Part shown: positions 4,404 through 23,619 of the stretch, piece after piece
How the letters are laid out: each line of letters opens with the position of its first letter
Numbering within the stretch: the first letter of the stretch is position 1
From: a virus
Taxonomy: Duplodnaviria > Heunggongvirae > Uroviricota > Caudoviricetes
IMG/VR virus record: IMGVR_UViG_2541047932_000016
DNA: 38,453 nt
Reading direction: 5' to 3' (one strand)
Made by a program: the position numbers and the translations under genes
The notes under the pieces: model-generated
What the model saw: the letters and a program-made list of their open reading frames with translations, nothing else
What the model was told of the DNA's origin: nothing
Databases searched by the model: none

Positions 4404-4456
4404 GGGCGGCAGAGCAGTCACGGAGTAAAACTGATACCGCCAAATGTCACCAGAAT
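4404..4456 (-). ncRNA. dicF: DicF small regulatory RNA (Hfq-dependent sRNA targeting ftsZ and other mRNAs)
   Basis: Minus-strand sequence ATTCTGGTGACATTTGGCGGTATCAGTTTTACTCCGTGACTGCTCTGCCGCCC is near-identical to the 53-nt E. coli DicF as I recall it, followed by a T-run; lies just upstream of dicB as in Qin. Confidence 0.78.
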
Positions 4457-17453: not shown

Positions 17454-17529
17454 GGCCCTTTAGCTCAGTGGTGAGAGCGAGCGACTCATAATCGCCAGGT
17501 CGCTGGTTCAAATCCAGCAAGGGCCACCA
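17454..17529 (+). tRNA. tRNA with CAT anticodon (Ile2/Met type; ileX/ileZ-like)
   Basis: Hand-folded 76-nt cloverleaf: acceptor GGCCCTT/AAGGGCC, anticodon loop CTCATAA, T-loop TTCAAAT, 3' CCA. Confidence 0.8.
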
Positions 17530-17536
17530 TCACATA

Positions 17537-17613
17537 CCGCCATTAGCTCATCAGGAAAGAGCGCCAGCTTTCGAAGCTGGTTGCGCGGAGTTCGGGTCCC
17601 CGAAGGCGGTCCA
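17537..17613 (+). tRNA. tRNA-Arg-like (anticodon TCG by hand folding), possibly degenerate
   Basis: 77 nt: acceptor CCGCCAT/AAGGCGG (one A-A mismatch), anticodon loop TTTCGAA, T-stem with one mismatch, T-loop TTCGGGT (non-canonical G at position 58), CCA. Confidence 0.5.
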
Positions 17614-17626
17614 TTATCTGTATCCT

Positions 17627-17703
17627 GCGTTGTTAGCTCAGCCGGACAGAGCAATTGCCTTCTAAGCAATCGGTCACTGGTTCGAATCCAGTACAACGCG
17701 CCA
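17627..17703 (+). tRNA. tRNA-Arg (anticodon TCT)
   Basis: 77 nt: acceptor GCGTTGT/ACAACGC, anticodon stem ATTGC/GCAAT, loop CTTCTAA, T-loop TTCGAAT, discriminator G, CCA. Confidence 0.8.
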
Positions 17704-18192
17704 CACTTATTTTCCCTGGCTCGCTTTTGCGGGCCTTTTTTTTAAATGTCTCACAATTCAGGCGGTTGACTGTTGTCTGGTTTGCGGGGAGTTTGTTAAA
17801 AGAAACTGGCATGGTGAATCCCCCTGTGCGGAGGGGCAATCAGCGAGTAGGTATATGGGATAATCGCGGATTCAGGTGCTGGTACTGAATTCACCGGGAG
17901 GCACCCGGCACCATGCAATGGCACATAGCGCCACTCTCCAGCCCCTCTCCGGAGGGGCTTTCTTATGGACAAAAAAAGCCCGCGCAGGGAGACGCGGGCG
18001 GCAAGGAATAAACAACAAAACGTGAAGTAATATTTCAGCTGGCGAATAATATCCGACAGTAATCACTCTGCGCAATAGCGCGGCCTTTTTCGTATTGCGG
18101 GCTGTTGTCTCTCTTCTGCCATTGTCCTGTAACTTCCGGACTTCAGCCCGCTCCTCATTTTACTCACAATATTATCCCGGCCGGGAGGATTC

Positions 18193-20043
18193 ATGGCATT
18201 TAAACACTATGATGTTGTCAGGGCGGCGTCGCCGTCAGACCTTGCGGAAAAGCTGACACACAAACTGAAAGAGGGCTGGCAGCCATACGGCGGACCGGTT
18301 GCCATTACGCCGTACACACTGATGCAGGCGGTGGCTATTGAAGGAGATCCACAGGTCGGCCCTTCATCTAAGCCGGACTGGTTCTACGTGGTTGTGCTTG
18401 CCGGACAGTCCAACGGCATGGCCTACGGTGAAGGGCTTCCGTTACCGGATTCTTACGATGCTCCGGATCCGCGCATTAAACAGCTGGCGCGCCGCAGCAC
18501 GGTAACTCCGGGTGGAGAGAGTTGTACGTATAACGACATCATTCCGGCTGACCACTGCCTGCATGATGTGCAGGATATGAGTACGCTGAATCATCCGAAG
18601 GCAGACCTGAGCAAAGGGCAGTACGGCTGTGTCGGCCAGGGCTTACATATTGCCAAAAAACTGCTTCCGTATATCCCGAATAACGCGGGGATCCTGCTGG
18701 TACCATGCTGTCGTGGTGGTTCTGCATTCACCCAGGGCGCTGAGGGGACATTCAGTGCGGACACGGGGGCCAGCCAGGATTCGGCACGCTGGGGTGTGGG
18801 TAAACCGTTATATCAGGACCTGATTGCGCGCACTAAAGCTGCATTACAGAAGAACCCGAAAAATGTGTTGCTGGCGGTGTGCTGGATGCAGGGAGAGTTT
18901 GACATGAGCGCCGCCACCCACGCACAGCAACCTGCGCTGTTTACAGCCATGCTGACACAGTTTCGTGCTGACCTCTCCGTGTTTAACGCGCAGTGCCATG
19001 GTGGCAGTGCTGCAGATGTGCCGTGGATTTGTGGTGACACGACGTATTACTGGAAAAATACCTACGGCACCCAGTACAACACCATTTACGGGGCGTACAA
19101 AAACAGGGAGAGTGAGGGCGTTTATTTTGTGCCCTTCATGACAGACGGTAACGGCGTCAATACCGCCACTAACGCGCCGGCAGAAGATCCGGATATTCCG
19201 GCATCAGGATATTACGGTGCGGCATCGAGAACGAATGGAAACCAGGTATCATCAAACCGCCCGACACATTTCAGTTCATGGGCGCGCAGGAGCATTATTC
19301 CGGATCGTCTGGCAACCGCTATTCTGAACGCAGCCGGGCGCACCTCCGCCTTCATCAGTGGTAAGGCACCGGAAATCAAACCCTCGCCCGGCGGCAACAC
19401 GCCATCGGGTCCGTCTGCAGATACGTCCGTTCGCACAATCTCCCTGCTGCCGGCAGCCGGAGAGGCTGCTGCGCAGGGCTGGAGCATTAAGGATGGCGGA
19501 ATTCAGTTGTCAGATGGTGTATTTAAGATCACCAAGCAGAGCAATAAAACCTGGTCCCTGACGCATCCGGTGGATGACGCAATTACCCTGCTGACACAGG
19601 GCGGCAGACTGAACTGTAAGTTCCGCCTGTCAGGCGCACTGACCAACAATCAGTTCGGGCTGGGGATTTATCTGTATACGGATGCTCCCGTTCCTGATGG
19701 TGTGGCGATGACGGGTACCGGTAATCCGTTCCTGATGTCGTACTTCACTCAGACCACTGACGGCAGAGTGAATCTGATGCATCACAGGAAAGCCGGAAAC
19801 ACGAAGCTGGGAGAGTTCGGCGATTACGGTAACGACTGGCAGACGCTGGAGCTGGTGTTCACCGCCGGCAGTGCCACGGTTACTCCGAAACTGAATGGAG
19901 TGGCTGGCCCGGCATTCCAGGTTATAAAAGACAGTCTGACACTGGGACTGAATGCGCTGACGCTGACGGATGTTACAAAAAATGCAGCGTATGGCGTTGA
20001 GATAGAAAGTCTGGTGCTGGAGATAAATGCACCGGCAGCATAA
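18193..20043 (+). CDS. nanS-p: NanS-p-like sialate O-acetylesterase (DUF1737 N-domain plus SGNH/DUF303 esterase)
   Basis: 616 aa; N-terminus MAFKHYDVVRAASPSDLAEKLTHKLKEGWQPYGGP...; VVLAGQSNGMAYGEG esterase motif; GGGAGG RBS; same position as nanS-p in Stx-type phages. Confidence 0.8.
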   Translation: MAFKHYDVVRAASPSDLAEKLTHKLKEGWQPYGGPVAITPYTLMQAVAIEGDPQVGPSSKPDWFYVVVLAGQSNGMAYGEGLPLPDSYDAPDPRIKQLARRSTVTPGGESCTYNDIIPADHCLHDVQDMSTLNHPKADLSKGQYGCVGQGLHIAKKLLPYIPNNAGILLVPCCRGGSAFTQGAEGTFSADTGASQDSARWGVGKPLYQDLIARTKAALQKNPKNVLLAVCWMQGEFDMSAATHAQQPALFTAMLTQFRADLSVFNAQCHGGSAADVPWICGDTTYYWKNTYGTQYNTIYGAYKNRESEGVYFVPFMTDGNGVNTATNAPAEDPDIPASGYYGAASRTNGNQVSSNRPTHFSSWARRSIIPDRLATAILNAAGRTSAFISGKAPEIKPSPGGNTPSGPSADTSVRTISLLPAAGEAAAQGWSIKDGGIQLSDGVFKITKQSNKTWSLTHPVDDAITLLTQGGRLNCKFRLSGALTNNQFGLGIYLYTDAPVPDGVAMTGTGNPFLMSYFTQTTDGRVNLMHHRKAGNTKLGEFGDYGNDWQTLELVFTAGSATVTPKLNGVAGPAFQVIKDSLTLGLNALTLTDVTKNAAYGVEIESLVLEINAPAA

Positions 20044-20045
20044 TA

Positions 20046-20340
20046 AAAAAAGAGCCAGCGACTGACCTGAAAGAAGACGCTGGCTAAAAGGCCTTATATG
20101 TTTGTAGAGACTTATTTTTCACAGACAGCAATGATGCCTGTCAATATATTATCAATATGCGGATTGTTTCAGTTACAGATGCTTTATTAAGGAAAAAAAC
20201 AGCCAGCACTGACTTTCGGTGGAGAGGTGCTGGCTCAGAAGGATAGTTGGATTTCACATGATACTTATGCCTGGCGGTATATTTTCTGACAGACAGTGAC
20301 GGGTGTTGTCAAGATATTGTGTCATTTATAACCTGAATCA
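20046..20340 (+). repeat. Degenerate tandem duplication (~147 bp x2) between nanS-p and holin
   Basis: Unit 1 (20046-20190) and unit 2 (20194-20340) each start AAAAAAA-[G/C]AGCCAGC..GCTGGCT hairpin, then TTTTC-ACAGACAG-..TGTCAA-ATATT; roughly 65% identity by eye. Confidence 0.4.
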
Positions 20341-20490
20341 GGGGAGGCCGGAATGTTATCTGGCATTTTTAGCAGAGCCTGAATGCCATAATCACGGCTC
20401 CCGGAGTTGGCCGTCAGTGGGTGACACTGGCGGCTTTTTTGTTTTTCTTTACTTTCATTTTCTGTCGGCGGTGACGGAGACATACATCAG

Positions 20491-20697
20491 ATGGAAAAAA
20501 TCACAACAGGTGTGTCATACACCACGTCAGCGGTGGGGACGGGATACTGGTTACTGCAGCTGCTGGACAAAGTCTCTCCGTCCCAGTGGGTGGCAATAGG
20601 TGTGCTGGGAAGTCTGCTGTTTGGCCTGCTGACGTATCTGACTAACCTGTATTTCAAAATCAGGGAGGACCGCCGTAAGACGGCGCGGGGAGACTAA
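20491..20697 (+). CDS. S: Holin (class II, phage 21 S-like pinholin family)
   Basis: 68 aa; two TM segments ([38 protein letters not shown]) and charged C-terminus [13 protein letters not shown], closely resembling S21. Confidence 0.8.
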
Positions 20698-20701
20698 AGC
20701 G

Positions 20702-21691
20702 ATGAAGAAAAAATACGAACAGGTTGTTAAAGAGATAAATAATTACCCGGATAAGATTGCTGTTACTGTGGCACTTGAAATTGGCGGGCATCCGTCGTTG
20801 TTGTTGCCACATGTGGCGATTAGTCTTGACCGTACTGAAGGTGCCACGCTGGAGTTCTACGAAGCTGAGGCGAAAAAACAGGCGAAGCAGTTTTTCATGG
20901 ATATTGTTGCCGGGTTATGCGAAGGGGATGAACCGTCACCGGAAAAGCGCCCCGTAATTTTAGATGCGCAGGATGTATTGATAACCTACAAAGGAAAGCT
21001 ACCGGGAAGAATTACTTGTTCTCTGAAGATGCCGCCGTCAACACTGCGGTCAGAAAAAGATGATGTTGAATCGCGTATTGAAAAACTGGAGTGCTATATC
21101 GCTGAATTGAAAAAAAGCACCCCAACAAAAAATGAGGTGCTTGCAGCAGACGAAATGAAAGAAGCTATTCCTGATCGCGCGGCGAATCTAAGCTGCGCTT
21201 CATGGTTGAAAGAGCATCTTCAGCAGCCTGAAAAAAAACGCCGCGATGAGCAGTTTGCTGCGTTTTACGATTATTGCCGGAAAGTGATGAGCAGAAATCT
21301 CGCAGAGTGTTTCAGTATTCATAATGATAATTTCAGTGAGCTGGAATGGGAGTGTAACCGGCCATCCTTTGTTGTATCCGGTGATGCCGGGAAAATAACC
21401 ATCTCAGAAAATGGGAAAGTAACACCTCCATCGCACCAGCACAGTGAGGAGCTCATTGAATTTGCCATTGATTACCTGAAGAACAATAAAAAGCAGGGGC
21501 TGATGAAGCGCGTGGGCCGTTGCATGGGATATCTTCAGGTAGCCGCTGAGATTGAAGCGCTGGCCAGTGGTGCTGATAAGGATGCAATTGTGCGGGAGGC
21601 TCTTCTTCGTGATTTTAATACTCCCCCTTTTAAAAAAGTGCCGGCTTACTGGCTTCATCCGGGGCTGACTTATCTTAAAGTGCGTATTTAG
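20702..21691 (+). CDS. Hypothetical protein (329 aa) inserted between holin and endolysin
   Basis: ATG 4 nt after holin stop with GGGGAG RBS; soluble, no family recognised. Confidence 0.7.
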   Translation: MKKKYEQVVKEINNYPDKIAVTVALEIGGHPSLLLPHVAISLDRTEGATLEFYEAEAKKQAKQFFMDIVAGLCEGDEPSPEKRPVILDAQDVLITYKGKLPGRITCSLKMPPSTLRSEKDDVESRIEKLECYIAELKKSTPTKNEVLAADEMKEAIPDRAANLSCASWLKEHLQQPEKKRRDEQFAAFYDYCRKVMSRNLAECFSIHNDNFSELEWECNRPSFVVSGDAGKITISENGKVTPPSHQHSEELIEFAIDYLKNNKKQGLMKRVGRCMGYLQVAAEIEALASGADKDAIVREALLRDFNTPPFKKVPAYWLHPGLTYLKVRI

Positions 21692-21727
21692 TGGGCCAGG
21701 GACAGCGGCTGAATATTTAATATATCC

Positions 21728-22261
21728 ATGAACACCAAAATCAAATACGGCCTGTCGGCTGCCGTTCTGGCGCTGATTGCAGCTGGTGCGCCTGCGCCTG
21801 ACATTCTCGACCAGTTTCTGGATGAAAAGGAAGGTAACCACACCACGGCATACCGTGATGGCGCGGGTATCTGGACCATCTGTCGCGGTGCCATTCTGGT
21901 GGATGGTAAACCTGTCGTCCCGGGCATGAAGTTGTCGAAGGAGAAATGCGACCAGGTTAACGCCATCGAACGTGATAAGGCGCTGGCATGGGTGGAGAAA
22001 AACATCAAAGTGCCATTGACCGAACCCCAGAAAGCGGGGATCGCGTCATTCTGTCCGTACAACATTGGTCCCGGTAAGTGTTTCCCGTCGACGTTTTACA
22101 GACGAATTAATGCTGGTGATCGCAGGGGAGCATGTGAGGCGATTCGCTGGTGGATTAAGGACGGTGGCAGAGACTGCCGTATTCGCTCAAATAACTGTTA
22201 CGGTCAGGTATCCCGTCGTGACCAGGAGAGCGCGCTGGCGTGCTGGGGAATCGACAGATAA
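21728..22261 (+). CDS. R: SAR endolysin (lysozyme, phage 21 R-like)
   Basis: 177 aa; N-terminal Gly/Ala-rich signal-anchor-release segment YGLSAAVLALIAAGAPA, then lysozyme body (...EGNHTTAYRDGAGIWTICRG...). Confidence 0.85.
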   Translation: MNTKIKYGLSAAVLALIAAGAPAPDILDQFLDEKEGNHTTAYRDGAGIWTICRGAILVDGKPVVPGMKLSKEKCDQVNAIERDKALAWVEKNIKVPLTEPQKAGIASFCPYNIGPGKCFPSTFYRRINAGDRRGACEAIRWWIKDGGRDCRIRSNNCYGQVSRRDQESALACWGIDR

Positions 22262-22354
22262 GCAGAATATTTTGCTAATAAATGACGTTGGCCAAGGCGG
22301 ACGGATAACACGAAATCCTGCGAACTGGCGAAACGTAAGTGAATAAAAGTAAAA

Positions 22355-22391
22355 ACCCCGTTTGTTGGCAGCAAGCGGGGTTTTGTTTTTA
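22355..22391 (+). terminator. Rho-independent terminator after the endolysin gene
   Basis: ACCCCGTTTG...CAAGCGGGGT stem followed by TTTTGTTTTT. Confidence 0.6.
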
Positions 22392-22455
22392 TGGCAGTAA
22401 GCTATGGGAGGCTGCCTTGATTGATTTTAGCAAACTGATTAGGGAGTTGCGACTC

Positions 22456-22551
22456 ATGATTAGTCAATTACCAAACTGGAAATTTTTGCTGGTCTGGAGC
22501 ATCCCTTTTTTATGGGTAGTATCCCAGTTAATTGTGGCAATTAAGGGGTAG
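22456..22551 (+). CDS. Small hydrophobic peptide (31 aa)
   Basis: ATG 22456 with AGGGAG RBS; MISQLPNWKFLLVWSIPFLWVVSQLIVAIKG. Confidence 0.35.
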   Translation: MISQLPNWKFLLVWSIPFLWVVSQLIVAIKG

Positions 22552-22553
22552 CT

Positions 22554-22685
22554 ATGTCAGACAAACTCATAACGCCGGCAAAGGTCCTGTGTGTGATTGT
22601 CGGTATTTCATTTTCACTAATGCTGGTTGCTCTTTTTCTGTCCCTCGCCTGGGTGATGTTGTCTTCGTCGGGGCTGCTGGGGTGA
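22554..22685 (+). CDS. Small hydrophobic peptide (43 aa)
   Basis: ATG 22554 with AAGGGG RBS; MSDKLITPAKVLCVIVGISFSLMLVALFLSLAWVMLSSSGLLG. Confidence 0.4.
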   Translation: MSDKLITPAKVLCVIVGISFSLMLVALFLSLAWVMLSSSGLLG

Positions 22686-22804
22686 CAGTGACTGATGACA
22701 TCAGCAGAGCGCTGGCTTTTGCTATTAAGTGGGTGGCTGTTGGTATTGCTGTGTCTCCGATGCTGTATGGGCTGGCAAAACTGGTCATTGCGCTGAAATC
22801 GTGA
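22682..22804 (+). CDS. Small hydrophobic peptide (40 aa), paralogue of the next ORF
   Basis: GTG overlapping the previous stop (GTGA); VTVTDDISRALAFAIKWVAVGIAVSPMLYGLAKLVIALKS; ~11/19 identity with the following peptide over the core. Confidence 0.4.
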   Translation: MTVTDDISRALAFAIKWVAVGIAVSPMLYGLAKLVIALKS

Positions 22805-22815
22805 ACTTTAAAAAG

Positions 22816-22902
22816 ATGAGTGCTGAACTTATTCGGGCAATGGCATTTGCTATTCGTATTGTGGCCATTGCTGTTCTGGTCTGGGCAATCCGTTGGTGGT
22901 GA
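22816..22902 (+). CDS. Small hydrophobic peptide (28 aa), paralogue of the previous ORF
   Basis: [28 protein letters not shown]; stop 1 nt before the Rz ATG. Confidence 0.4.
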
Positions 22903-22903
22903 T

Positions 22904-23398
22904 ATGAACCGTGTTCTGTGTGTGGTGATTATTGTCCTGCTGGTAGCCTGTGGTGTGCTTAGTCTGGGGCTGAATCATTACCGTGATAACGCCATAACCT
23001 ACAAAGAGCAGCGCGATAAAAAAGTCAGTGAGCTGGAGCAGGCAAATGCAACCATTACTGATATGCAGCAGCGCCAGCGTGATGTTGCTGCACTTGATGC
23101 CAGATACACGAAGGAATTAGCCGATGCGAGAGCTGAAAATGAAACTCTGCGCGCTGATGTTGCCGCTGGTCGTAAGCGCCTGCGGATCAACGCCACCTGC
23201 TCCGGTACCGTGCGTGAAGCCACCGGCACCTCCAGCGTGGATAATGCAACCGGCCCCCGACTGGCAGACACCGCTGAACGGGATTATTTCATCCTCAGAG
23301 AACGGTTGATGACAATGCAGAAGCAGCTGGAAGGGGCGCAGGAATATATCCGCACTCAGTGCACTAAGCTGGCTTTTTATTATCCGGAGGATACATGA
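22904..23398 (+). CDS. Rz: Rz i-spanin
   Basis: 164 aa from ATG 22904; N-terminal TM anchor ([20 protein letters not shown]), coiled-coil periplasmic domain, embedded Rz1. Confidence 0.8.
23139..23309 (+). CDS. Rz1: Rz1 o-spanin (outer-membrane lipoprotein) embedded in Rz in the +1 frame
   Basis: [15 protein letters not shown] lipobox signal, then Pro-rich mature peptide ([30 protein letters not shown]...). Confidence 0.7.
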
Positions 23399-23619
23399 AG
23401 AAATTACGGGTAACCGTAGAACCTTTTCAGGGAACAATTCCGTTCCGTATTTTGCAGCGTGGTCGTGTTCTTGTTGAAGGTTCGTTCAGTGGTAAATGTA
23501 CGCAATTACACTCCCGGACCTTTCAGGTGAATGCCACGAATGAAGAGCTAACCGTGGAGTGTACGATGAATGCCGCTAAATGCCGCATGGTATCCGCTGC
23601 ATTACAGCCAGTGTGTTGA
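23395..23619 (+). CDS. Hypothetical protein (74 aa) coupled to the Rz stop
   Basis: ATG overlaps Rz TGA (ATGA); Cys-containing soluble product; unrecognised. Confidence 0.4.

Follow-up and report, generated by a model that had tools for sequence, protein, structure and literature searches.

A long-form YdfR (DUF1327) family gene between holin and endolysin of a lambdoid phage: an accessory late-operon gene possibly linked to RNA decay

The DNA analyzed here is a stretch of 38,453 nucleotides from a virus of the class Caudoviricetes (IMG/VR record IMGVR_UViG_2541047932_000016), in the following called the window, and the element in question is a 329-codon gene that lies between the holin gene S and the endolysin gene R of its lysis cassette. 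By its sequence, this gene is a long-form member of the catalogued YdfR (DUF1327) prophage family, a family of accessory, non-essential genes carried in the lambdoid late operon. Three points are new: the apparently ancestral long-form architecture, a C-terminal module (C-module) for which neither a family nor a structural relative was found, and a conservation of the late-operon location rather than of the holin-endolysin (S-R) junction. Together they shift the question away from whether the gene is a lysis regulator. Regarding function, we tentatively favor a late-expressed cytoplasmic modulator of host RNA decay, or an RNA-binding protein, rather than a lysis component; this reading is possible, though still short of probable.

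The open reading frame (ORF) is intact from ATG to TAG on the plus strand (20702..21691). The holin stop codon TAA (20695-20697) is followed by the four nucleotides AGCG and then directly by the start codon at 20702. Close to its 3' end, the holin gene includes a Shine-Dalgarno sequence (SD), GGGGAGA (20687-20693), at a distance of 8 nt from this start codon, and the endolysin ORF starts 36 nt past the stop of the 329-codon gene. The holin matches Pfam PF04971, 'Bacteriophage P21 holin S' (E 1.4e-32), as well as PHROG holin families, and the endolysin matches PF00959 of the T4-lysozyme family (E 1.4e-24). The N-terminal segment of R is rich in Gly and Ala (YGLSAAVLALIAAGAPAP), and a triad E35-x8-D44-x5-T50 can be read from its translation; both features look as expected of signal-anchor-release (SAR) endolysins. 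In the case of the 329-aa protein, the maximum Kyte-Doolittle value over a 19-residue window is 1.09, the pI is 6.4 and the mass is 37 kDa, and inspection of hydropathy and sequence revealed neither a signal-peptide-like N-terminus nor a transmembrane (TM) segment, which supports a soluble protein. An earlier sequence-only reading had described exactly this layout, a gene for a large soluble protein of 329 aa starting 4 nt after the holin stop and placed ahead of a SAR-type endolysin, and on all these points it was confirmed. Its suggestion of an exported effector is disfavored by the same missing signal peptide and TM segment.

Family membership is clear from the profile searches. Residues 1-100 match DUF1327 (PF07041) with 128.7 bits against a gathering cutoff of 25 (E 9.8e-38), a family that is also matched by 37 of the 41 relatives collected. 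PHROG 1085, a function-unassigned family, covers residues 1-329 over the full length of its profile (positions 1-296 of 296; E 1.7e-179), and the NCBI name of the family is 'YdfR family protein'. The sequence-only reading had left the gene without an assigned function, and this still holds, DUF1327 and PHROG 1085 being functionally unsolved. Scanned against NCBIfam, the protein gave nothing above noise (a hit to HpnC), DUF1327 was the only family to recur when 11 C-modules and 41 N-domains were scanned leniently against Pfam, and a literature search yielded no named function for a gene intervening at the S-R junction. The 329-aa form belongs to a protein cluster of 648 members at 97% identity. 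Only 100 clusters came out of an exhaustive profile search through 1.84 billion representative proteins, and the host range of the family is narrow, being restricted to Enterobacterales.

The nearest genome is that of E. coli O39:NM F8704-2 (NZ_CP050998.1; locus L001, 6001-6990), in which a single synonymous base differs within the gene. Although the ORF is intact there, the PGAP annotation stops after its first 336 nt and labels the gene a pseudogene 'missing C-terminus'. We consider this call an artefact, because the family model was built on the short YdfR form. As a practical consequence, intact long forms are mislabelled by PGAP as truncated pseudogenes.

The best-described relative is YdfR of the Qin prophage of E. 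coli K-12, whose N-domain is homologous to that of the window protein (39% identity over 74 aa, E 1e-16). In Qin, the order essD-ydfR-rrrQ places ydfR in the same position as the window gene, likewise 4 nt behind a class II holin and ahead of an rrrQ-type lysozyme; an intervening gene at the holin-endolysin junction was therefore already known, as was the family itself. The two genes differ in their extent. K-12 YdfR is a single-domain protein of 103 aa, and the stop codon of its gene overlaps the start of R, whereas the window gene ends before R and its protein adds to the typical 100-115-aa YdfR a linker, a coiled-coil-like and variable middle part and a C-module of 117 aa.

Altogether, the alignments divide the protein into five segments: the DUF1327 core, the linker, a coiled-coil-like helix, the variable middle and the C-module (Table 1). 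Within the coiled-coil-like helix L136 is invariant, and distant relatives from Salmonella retain 'LEERVAxLEKRL' there. The middle contains a 37-aa segment (~residues 141-177) that is found in some members only; the common 296-aa form, with which the long form of PHROG 1085 agrees, is devoid of it, so that the window copy is the same family with an extra segment. The C-module is characterized by the motifs GRCMGYLQVAAEIEA and FNTPPFK..P..W..PG..YLK.R. The AF2 model of the whole protein was poor (pLDDT 48). Within it, the N-domain is usable, with three strands and a long helix (pLDDT 67-87), and the C-module, modelled in a separate run, was confident (pLDDT 89); for this module no Pfam family and no structural relative was found. 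As the N-domain and the C-module both open with a three-strand meander and a helix, an internal duplication was considered and rejected (hhalign probability 0.2%).

At divergences from 8% to ~60%, dN/dS was 0.21-0.36 for the N-domain and 0.16-0.41 for the C-module; therefore, both halves are maintained as protein. These values, the 648-member cluster and the Salmonella relatives with the same domain order indicate a real gene rather than a chance ORF. At about codon 212 the divergence jumps, the N-domain and the middle being near-identical to three other loci (L005-L007) and the C-module 8% different, and therefore recombination has taken place inside the gene.

Important insight can be gained from the most distant relatives. 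These are 25-40% identical, and those with a named source come from Salmonella enterica. Five of the distant relatives (P0141, P0145, P0149, P0165 and P0183) retain the three-part order. The Salmonella enterica proteins (P0141, 266 aa; P0149, 298 aa; P0165, 314 aa; P0221; P0238) resemble the window protein in architecture, in late-operon location and in the C-module motifs, which here read GRCMGLLQVAAEIEA, FDNPPFK and W..PG..YLK.R. Their genes sit between the Q antiterminator gene and the holin gene, whereas the window gene lies between holin and endolysin, and their holin is often of the HP1 type (PF16080) and not of the S21 type. Other Salmonella genes carrying the C-module likewise stand upstream of a holin, one more relative lies upstream of an unrelated holin and endolysin, and stand-alone DUF1327 proteins of 72 aa occur in Sodalis and Serratia. 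A scan of viral contigs with the relative P0183 found nothing. Since the three-part order is kept in distant relatives, the long form would be the ancestral layout, and the short proteins of 100-115 aa, including the K-12 type, look like N-domain-only derivatives of a longer protein of Escherichia and Salmonella. Because the Salmonella relatives lie elsewhere, the S-R location is dispensable, and the conserved trait is a position in the early part of the late operon, close to the lysis genes. In five of the Salmonella prophages (L088, L089 and L092-L094), the interval between Q and the holin also holds HicA/HicB or ParE plus helix-turn-helix pairs, often with a DUF4406 gene directly upstream.

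To describe the occupancy of the slot, we surveyed 80 viral contigs picked for a holin at least 93% identical to that of the window, plus reference loci, and classified the 63 cassettes that carry the same endolysin allele by the first ORF after the holin. An insert between S and R was present in 61 of these and missing in two, thus both states exist with the same S and R. The most frequent type, DUF1327 with the linker (~114 aa), accounts for 28 of the 63 cassettes, whereas the full architecture (296-329 aa) was found in 6. DUF1327 alone (86-104 aa) occupies 4, DUF1327 with linker and middle (176-183 aa) another 6, and the middle with the C-module but without DUF1327 (mostly 185-213 aa) 9. 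There were 2 other chimeras (263-268 aa), 6 cassettes with the first ORF disrupted within 50 codons, and the 2 empty ones, with a 4-nt S-R spacer (L063 and L064). Without exception the inserts begin 3-4 nt past the holin stop, and almost all of them terminate in an AT-rich stretch that is conserved ahead of R. Several cassettes contain non-coding remnant DNA, hundreds of bases in length. In 15 further loci S and R overlap, the endolysin is a different one (~31% identical to R) and inserts are missing throughout. These loci were first considered as empty sites and were rejected as such on account of the different endolysin allele, which leaves the two true empty sites. Likewise, 687-nt inserts considered as unrelated sequence turned out to be DUF1327 genes truncated after 10 codons, and the second gene of a UTI89-type gap, a candidate for a split-off C-module, is a minus-strand ORF in remnant DNA.

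The gene is also widespread outside this sample. By megablast it was matched in 2389 of 5426 complete E. coli genomes, of which only 491 cover at least 80% of it; most matches comprise nt 1-328 only, that is the DUF1327 domain. The N-domain was found in 100 of 50,697 deposited phage records, all of them Escherichia phages (among them H-19B, BP-4795 and many Stx1a and Stx2c phages), whereas the C-module is encoded in only 5 of these records and, in a scan with alignment A4, in only three of 185,579 species-representative genomes, all Escherichia or Shigella. Inducible, plaque-forming phages (H-19B, BP-4795, phage 86 and Stx2_95) carry the gene. The view that an intervening gene is unusual in a lysis cassette was thus overturned, because cassettes with an S21-type holin and an rrrQ-type lysozyme normally have an S-R insert and the feature is ordinary in kind. 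The gene is widely conserved, as a family and not as a functionally characterized lysis component. It also appears dispensable for lysis, given the two cassettes with only a 4-nt spacer, the six disrupted ones and the overlapping S and R of the phage-21 type.

Such a mosaic slot could be interpreted as a recombination junction that gathers fragments, the gene being a neutral, decaying passenger without present function. The small share of full architectures, the six disrupted ORFs, the remnant DNA, the recombination at about codon 212 and the many family fragments in protein databases all agree with this. Against it, the dN/dS values in both modules contradict decay, the intact 329-aa form has its 648 near-identical members, the architecture is common to Escherichia and Salmonella, and the gene persists in the plaque-forming phages named above, so that we regard mere decay as hardly probable.

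The junctions themselves suggest another explanation, in which the protein matters little and the insert acts in cis: it would take over the holin-terminal SD and move R ~1 kb downstream, behind an AT-rich leader without SD, and thereby lower or uncouple the translation of R. In the two empty cassettes the SD GGGGAGAG indeed stands 8 nt before the R start codon, whereas every occupied cassette gives this SD to the insert and has R preceded by GATAAATCCTGATAAATATCC or GGCTGAATATTTAATATATCC; in the comparison of the 80 junctions, no insert-bearing cassette showed an SD 5-13 nt before the R start codon. That many truncated or disrupted inserts are nevertheless kept also fits. Purifying selection on both protein modules does not, nor does an architecture kept at 25-40% identity in Salmonella, away from the S-R junction. 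In the case of K-12 ydfR, the stop overlapping the R start codon would couple the two genes and not uncouple them. Overall, we consider a cis effect as the main role very unlikely.

Regarding expression, a consensus scan of the plus strand from 20150 to 22500 detected no sigma-70-like promoter, and no terminator was found between the gene and R (21692-21727). The obligate co-expression with the lysis genes that the sequence-only reading had proposed is therefore plausible. By analogy with lambdoid biology, transcription should occur only on the Q-dependent late transcript. As the gene has no promoter or terminator of its own, it should consequently be silent in the lysogen.

This silence bears on the idea of a moron for defense, anti-defense or superinfection exclusion, which would help the lysogen or the infecting phage against competitors and of which the sequence-only reading had raised the defense and anti-defense forms. 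Two traits of a moron were found, namely a deviant GC content (46.0%, compared to 53.6% in S and 54.5% in R) and a presence/absence polymorphism, here with strong mosaicism of the locus; an own promoter and terminator were not. The narrow host range and the toxin-antitoxin pairs in the Q-S interval of the Salmonella relatives would also suit such a role. In contrast, PADLOC-DB v2 gave no match to the full protein and only a noise-level Avs2 hit to residues 101-329 (E 0.018, 10.8 bits), and no enzymatic or NTPase motif was recognized in any library scanned. RNA-seq of K-12 under standard growth contained almost no ydfR reads (PMC13232886). With neither a PADLOC match nor an own promoter to support it, we judge the proposal quite improbable.

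We therefore turn to the favored reading, a late cytoplasmic modulator of RNA decay. Firstly, the Q-antiterminated late transcript would carry the gene along with the lysis genes, translation would start from the SD in the terminal part of the holin gene, and the protein would remain cytoplasmic. Secondly, the N-terminal DUF1327 domain would correspond to the region with which K-12 YdfR contacts RNase E, in the catalytic N-terminal half of the enzyme, and with which RNA is co-purified. The short coiled coil would probably make the protein oligomeric, and the C-module would offer a second binding surface. Late in infection, the protein would dock on RNase E and/or RNA and alter RNA decay. Possible outcomes are that the long late transcript is protected or that host RNA turnover is redirected, and the protein would have no part in the holin, endolysin or spanin steps.

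Experimental evidence on the YdfR family is confined to the work of Göpel et al. 2026 (PMC13232886). In their two-hybrid assays K-12 YdfR bound the N-terminal half of RNase E, for which residues 1-72 suffice, and it co-purified RNase E 1-598, the eluates containing DNase-resistant nucleic acid. Overexpression of ydfR in K-12 was not toxic, caused no growth defect and changed few transcripts (PMC13232886). The stretch of the window protein that aligns to K-12 YdfR covers these RNase E-binding residues. We infer that RNase E and RNA binding are retained by the window's N-domain, that the coiled coil oligomerizes and that RNA decay is the physiological target.

A role of this kind would have analogies among phage proteins. 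T4 Srd binds the catalytic half of RNase E, as K-12 YdfR does (PMC13232886), phiKZ Dip (gp37) acts as a scaffold-binding protein and T7 gp0.7 phosphorylates the enzyme (PMC4980113). All three are cytoplasmic phage proteins acting on RNase E, and their likeness to the window protein would be one of function; homology to Srd, Dip or gp0.7, in sequence or structure, was not encountered. They come from virulent phages and act early in infection, whereas the window gene belongs to the late genes of a temperate phage.

Several observations weigh against the favored reading. K-12 YdfR is only 39% identical and is devoid of the middle and C-terminal modules, and it is the C-module, the best-conserved part, to which no role is attached. 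In the K-12 experiments, the full-length short-linker YdfR fusion bound only one RNase E construct, besides the few transcripts changed; the RNase E interaction could be RNA-bridged, and a contaminating RNA-binding protein is possible according to the authors (PMC13232886). The dsrm family PF00035 was not matched by the window protein, nor by any of the 41 DUF1327 members at E values up to 5. Compared to the double-stranded RNA-binding domain (dsRBD) of this family, with its canonical α-β-β-β-α order, the DUF1327 N-domain is missing the first helix, and the KKQAK of the window protein (residues 58-62) lies inside a helix and is not conserved in the DUF1327 family. A more specific version, in which long YdfR is a temperate-phage adaptor or inhibitor of RNase E, built from a degenerate dsRBD-like N-domain, an oligomerizing coiled coil and a C-terminal fold without known relative, is doubtful.

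Two further points against a role in RNA decay speak at the same time for a lysis-related one. Firstly, the near-universal occupancy of the S-R slot beside this endolysin allele (61 of 63, compared to none of the 15 loci in which the ~31%-identical endolysin overlaps the holin stop) could mean such a role. Secondly, an envelope-integrity screen (Paradis-Bleau 2014, as cited in PMC13232886) had ydfR among its hits. The gene would then be a lysis-timing regulator, a cytoplasmic protein that tunes the moment of lysis by binding the charged cytoplasmic C-terminus of the pinholin, by binding the SAR endolysin while this is still tethered to the membrane, or by acting on the secretion of the endolysin. 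In line with this, it lies inside the lysis cassette and uses the holin-terminal SD, and all relatives stand within a few genes of a holin. To our knowledge, the known antiholins and endolysin regulators (S107, LydB, T4 RI and Mu releasin) act at or across the membrane. The window protein, however, has no TM segment or periplasmic targeting and is encoded by a separate ORF, not by an alternative holin start. The Salmonella relatives are also difficult to reconcile with this role, as they lie outside the S-R junction, go with the different holin family PF16080 and have other genes in between. Moreover, overexpression in K-12 left growth unaffected, and the slot tolerates truncated, disrupted and empty states. 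The lysis regulator proposed from the sequence is thus weakened; as an explanation we consider it unlikely, albeit less so than the cis effect, the moron or the decaying passenger.

Prophages in at least 44% of the complete E. coli genomes have a YdfR-family gene in their late operon, and so do many Shiga-toxin (Stx) phages, in which it is transcribed together with the lysis genes and often also with stx. A late-made RNase E adaptor would reprogram RNA decay and, through the late transcript shared with stx, could affect the yield of toxin and virions or link the turnover of RNA to the timing of lysis.

The coordinates of the cassette are collected in Table 1.

Table 1. Segments of the 329-codon gene and neighboring features of the lysis cassette, in window positions.
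Feature	Positions	Strand	Basis or remark
S21-type class II holin, 68 aa	20491..20697	+	PF04971; 3' end holds the SD GGGGAGA for the insert
DUF1327 (YdfR) core, codons 1-75, three β-strands then long helix	20702..20926	+	
Linker (PEKRPVILDAQDVLITYKGKLPGRI...), codons 76-122, common to ~114-aa short forms	20927..21067	+	alignments A1, A2; low model confidence
Coiled-coil-like helix (SRIEKLECYIAELKK), 37-aa optional segment, helix EKKRRDEQFAAFYDYCRKV..., codons 123-212	21068..21337	+	alignments A1, A3
Conserved C-terminal module, codons 213-329 plus stop	21338..21691	+	three-stranded meander then four helices
AT-rich 36-nt spacer before R	21692..21727	+	sequence; junctions compared across 80 loci
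SAR-type T4-lysozyme-family endolysin R, 177 aa	21728..22261	+	PF00959
Separate R-Rz insert: terminator-like hairpin, tandem small TM ORFs (context only)	22262..22903	+	
Rz spanin, with Rz1 embedded (23124..23309)	22904..23398	+	PF03245, E 5.5e-51

The start of Rz coincides with that of a PGAP 'lysis protein' in the near-identical genome, and the Rz1 ORF has a lipobox-like LVVSAC. Overlapping the Rz stop, a 74-aa ORF (23395-23619) has no Pfam match and is annotated as hypothetical in the near-identical genome. The R-Rz insert starts with a strong hairpin resembling an intrinsic terminator (22352-22384), with a T-run behind it, and contains three or four tandem small ORFs (22339-22551, 22554-22685, 22649-22804 and 22816-22902), each ending in a TM helix and with similar tails. 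These ORFs match the function-unassigned PHROGs 6632, 4906 and 3246, and the GC content there is 45.9%, compared to ~53% in the flanks.

Upstream of the cassette, another terminator-like hairpin of 11 pairs followed by TTTTTTGTTTT (20409-20445) lies 46 nt before the holin start, in an ORF-poor gap of 447 nt after an esterase gene; presumably, Q-modified polymerase reads through it. This gene (18193-20043) encodes a NanS-p-like sialate O-acetylesterase (DUF1737, SASA and DUF6645) and directly follows a match to the STnc100 small RNA (17780-17970), which in turn is preceded by tRNAs Met-CAT, Arg-TCG and Arg-TCT (17454-17703). This part of the late region (17454-20043) is thus arranged as in Stx phages, without stx genes. 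Finally, on the minus strand at 4404-4455, a full-length match to the DicF antisense small RNA (77 bits, E 1.7e-15) was found, as in the immunity region of the Qin/Kim prophage.

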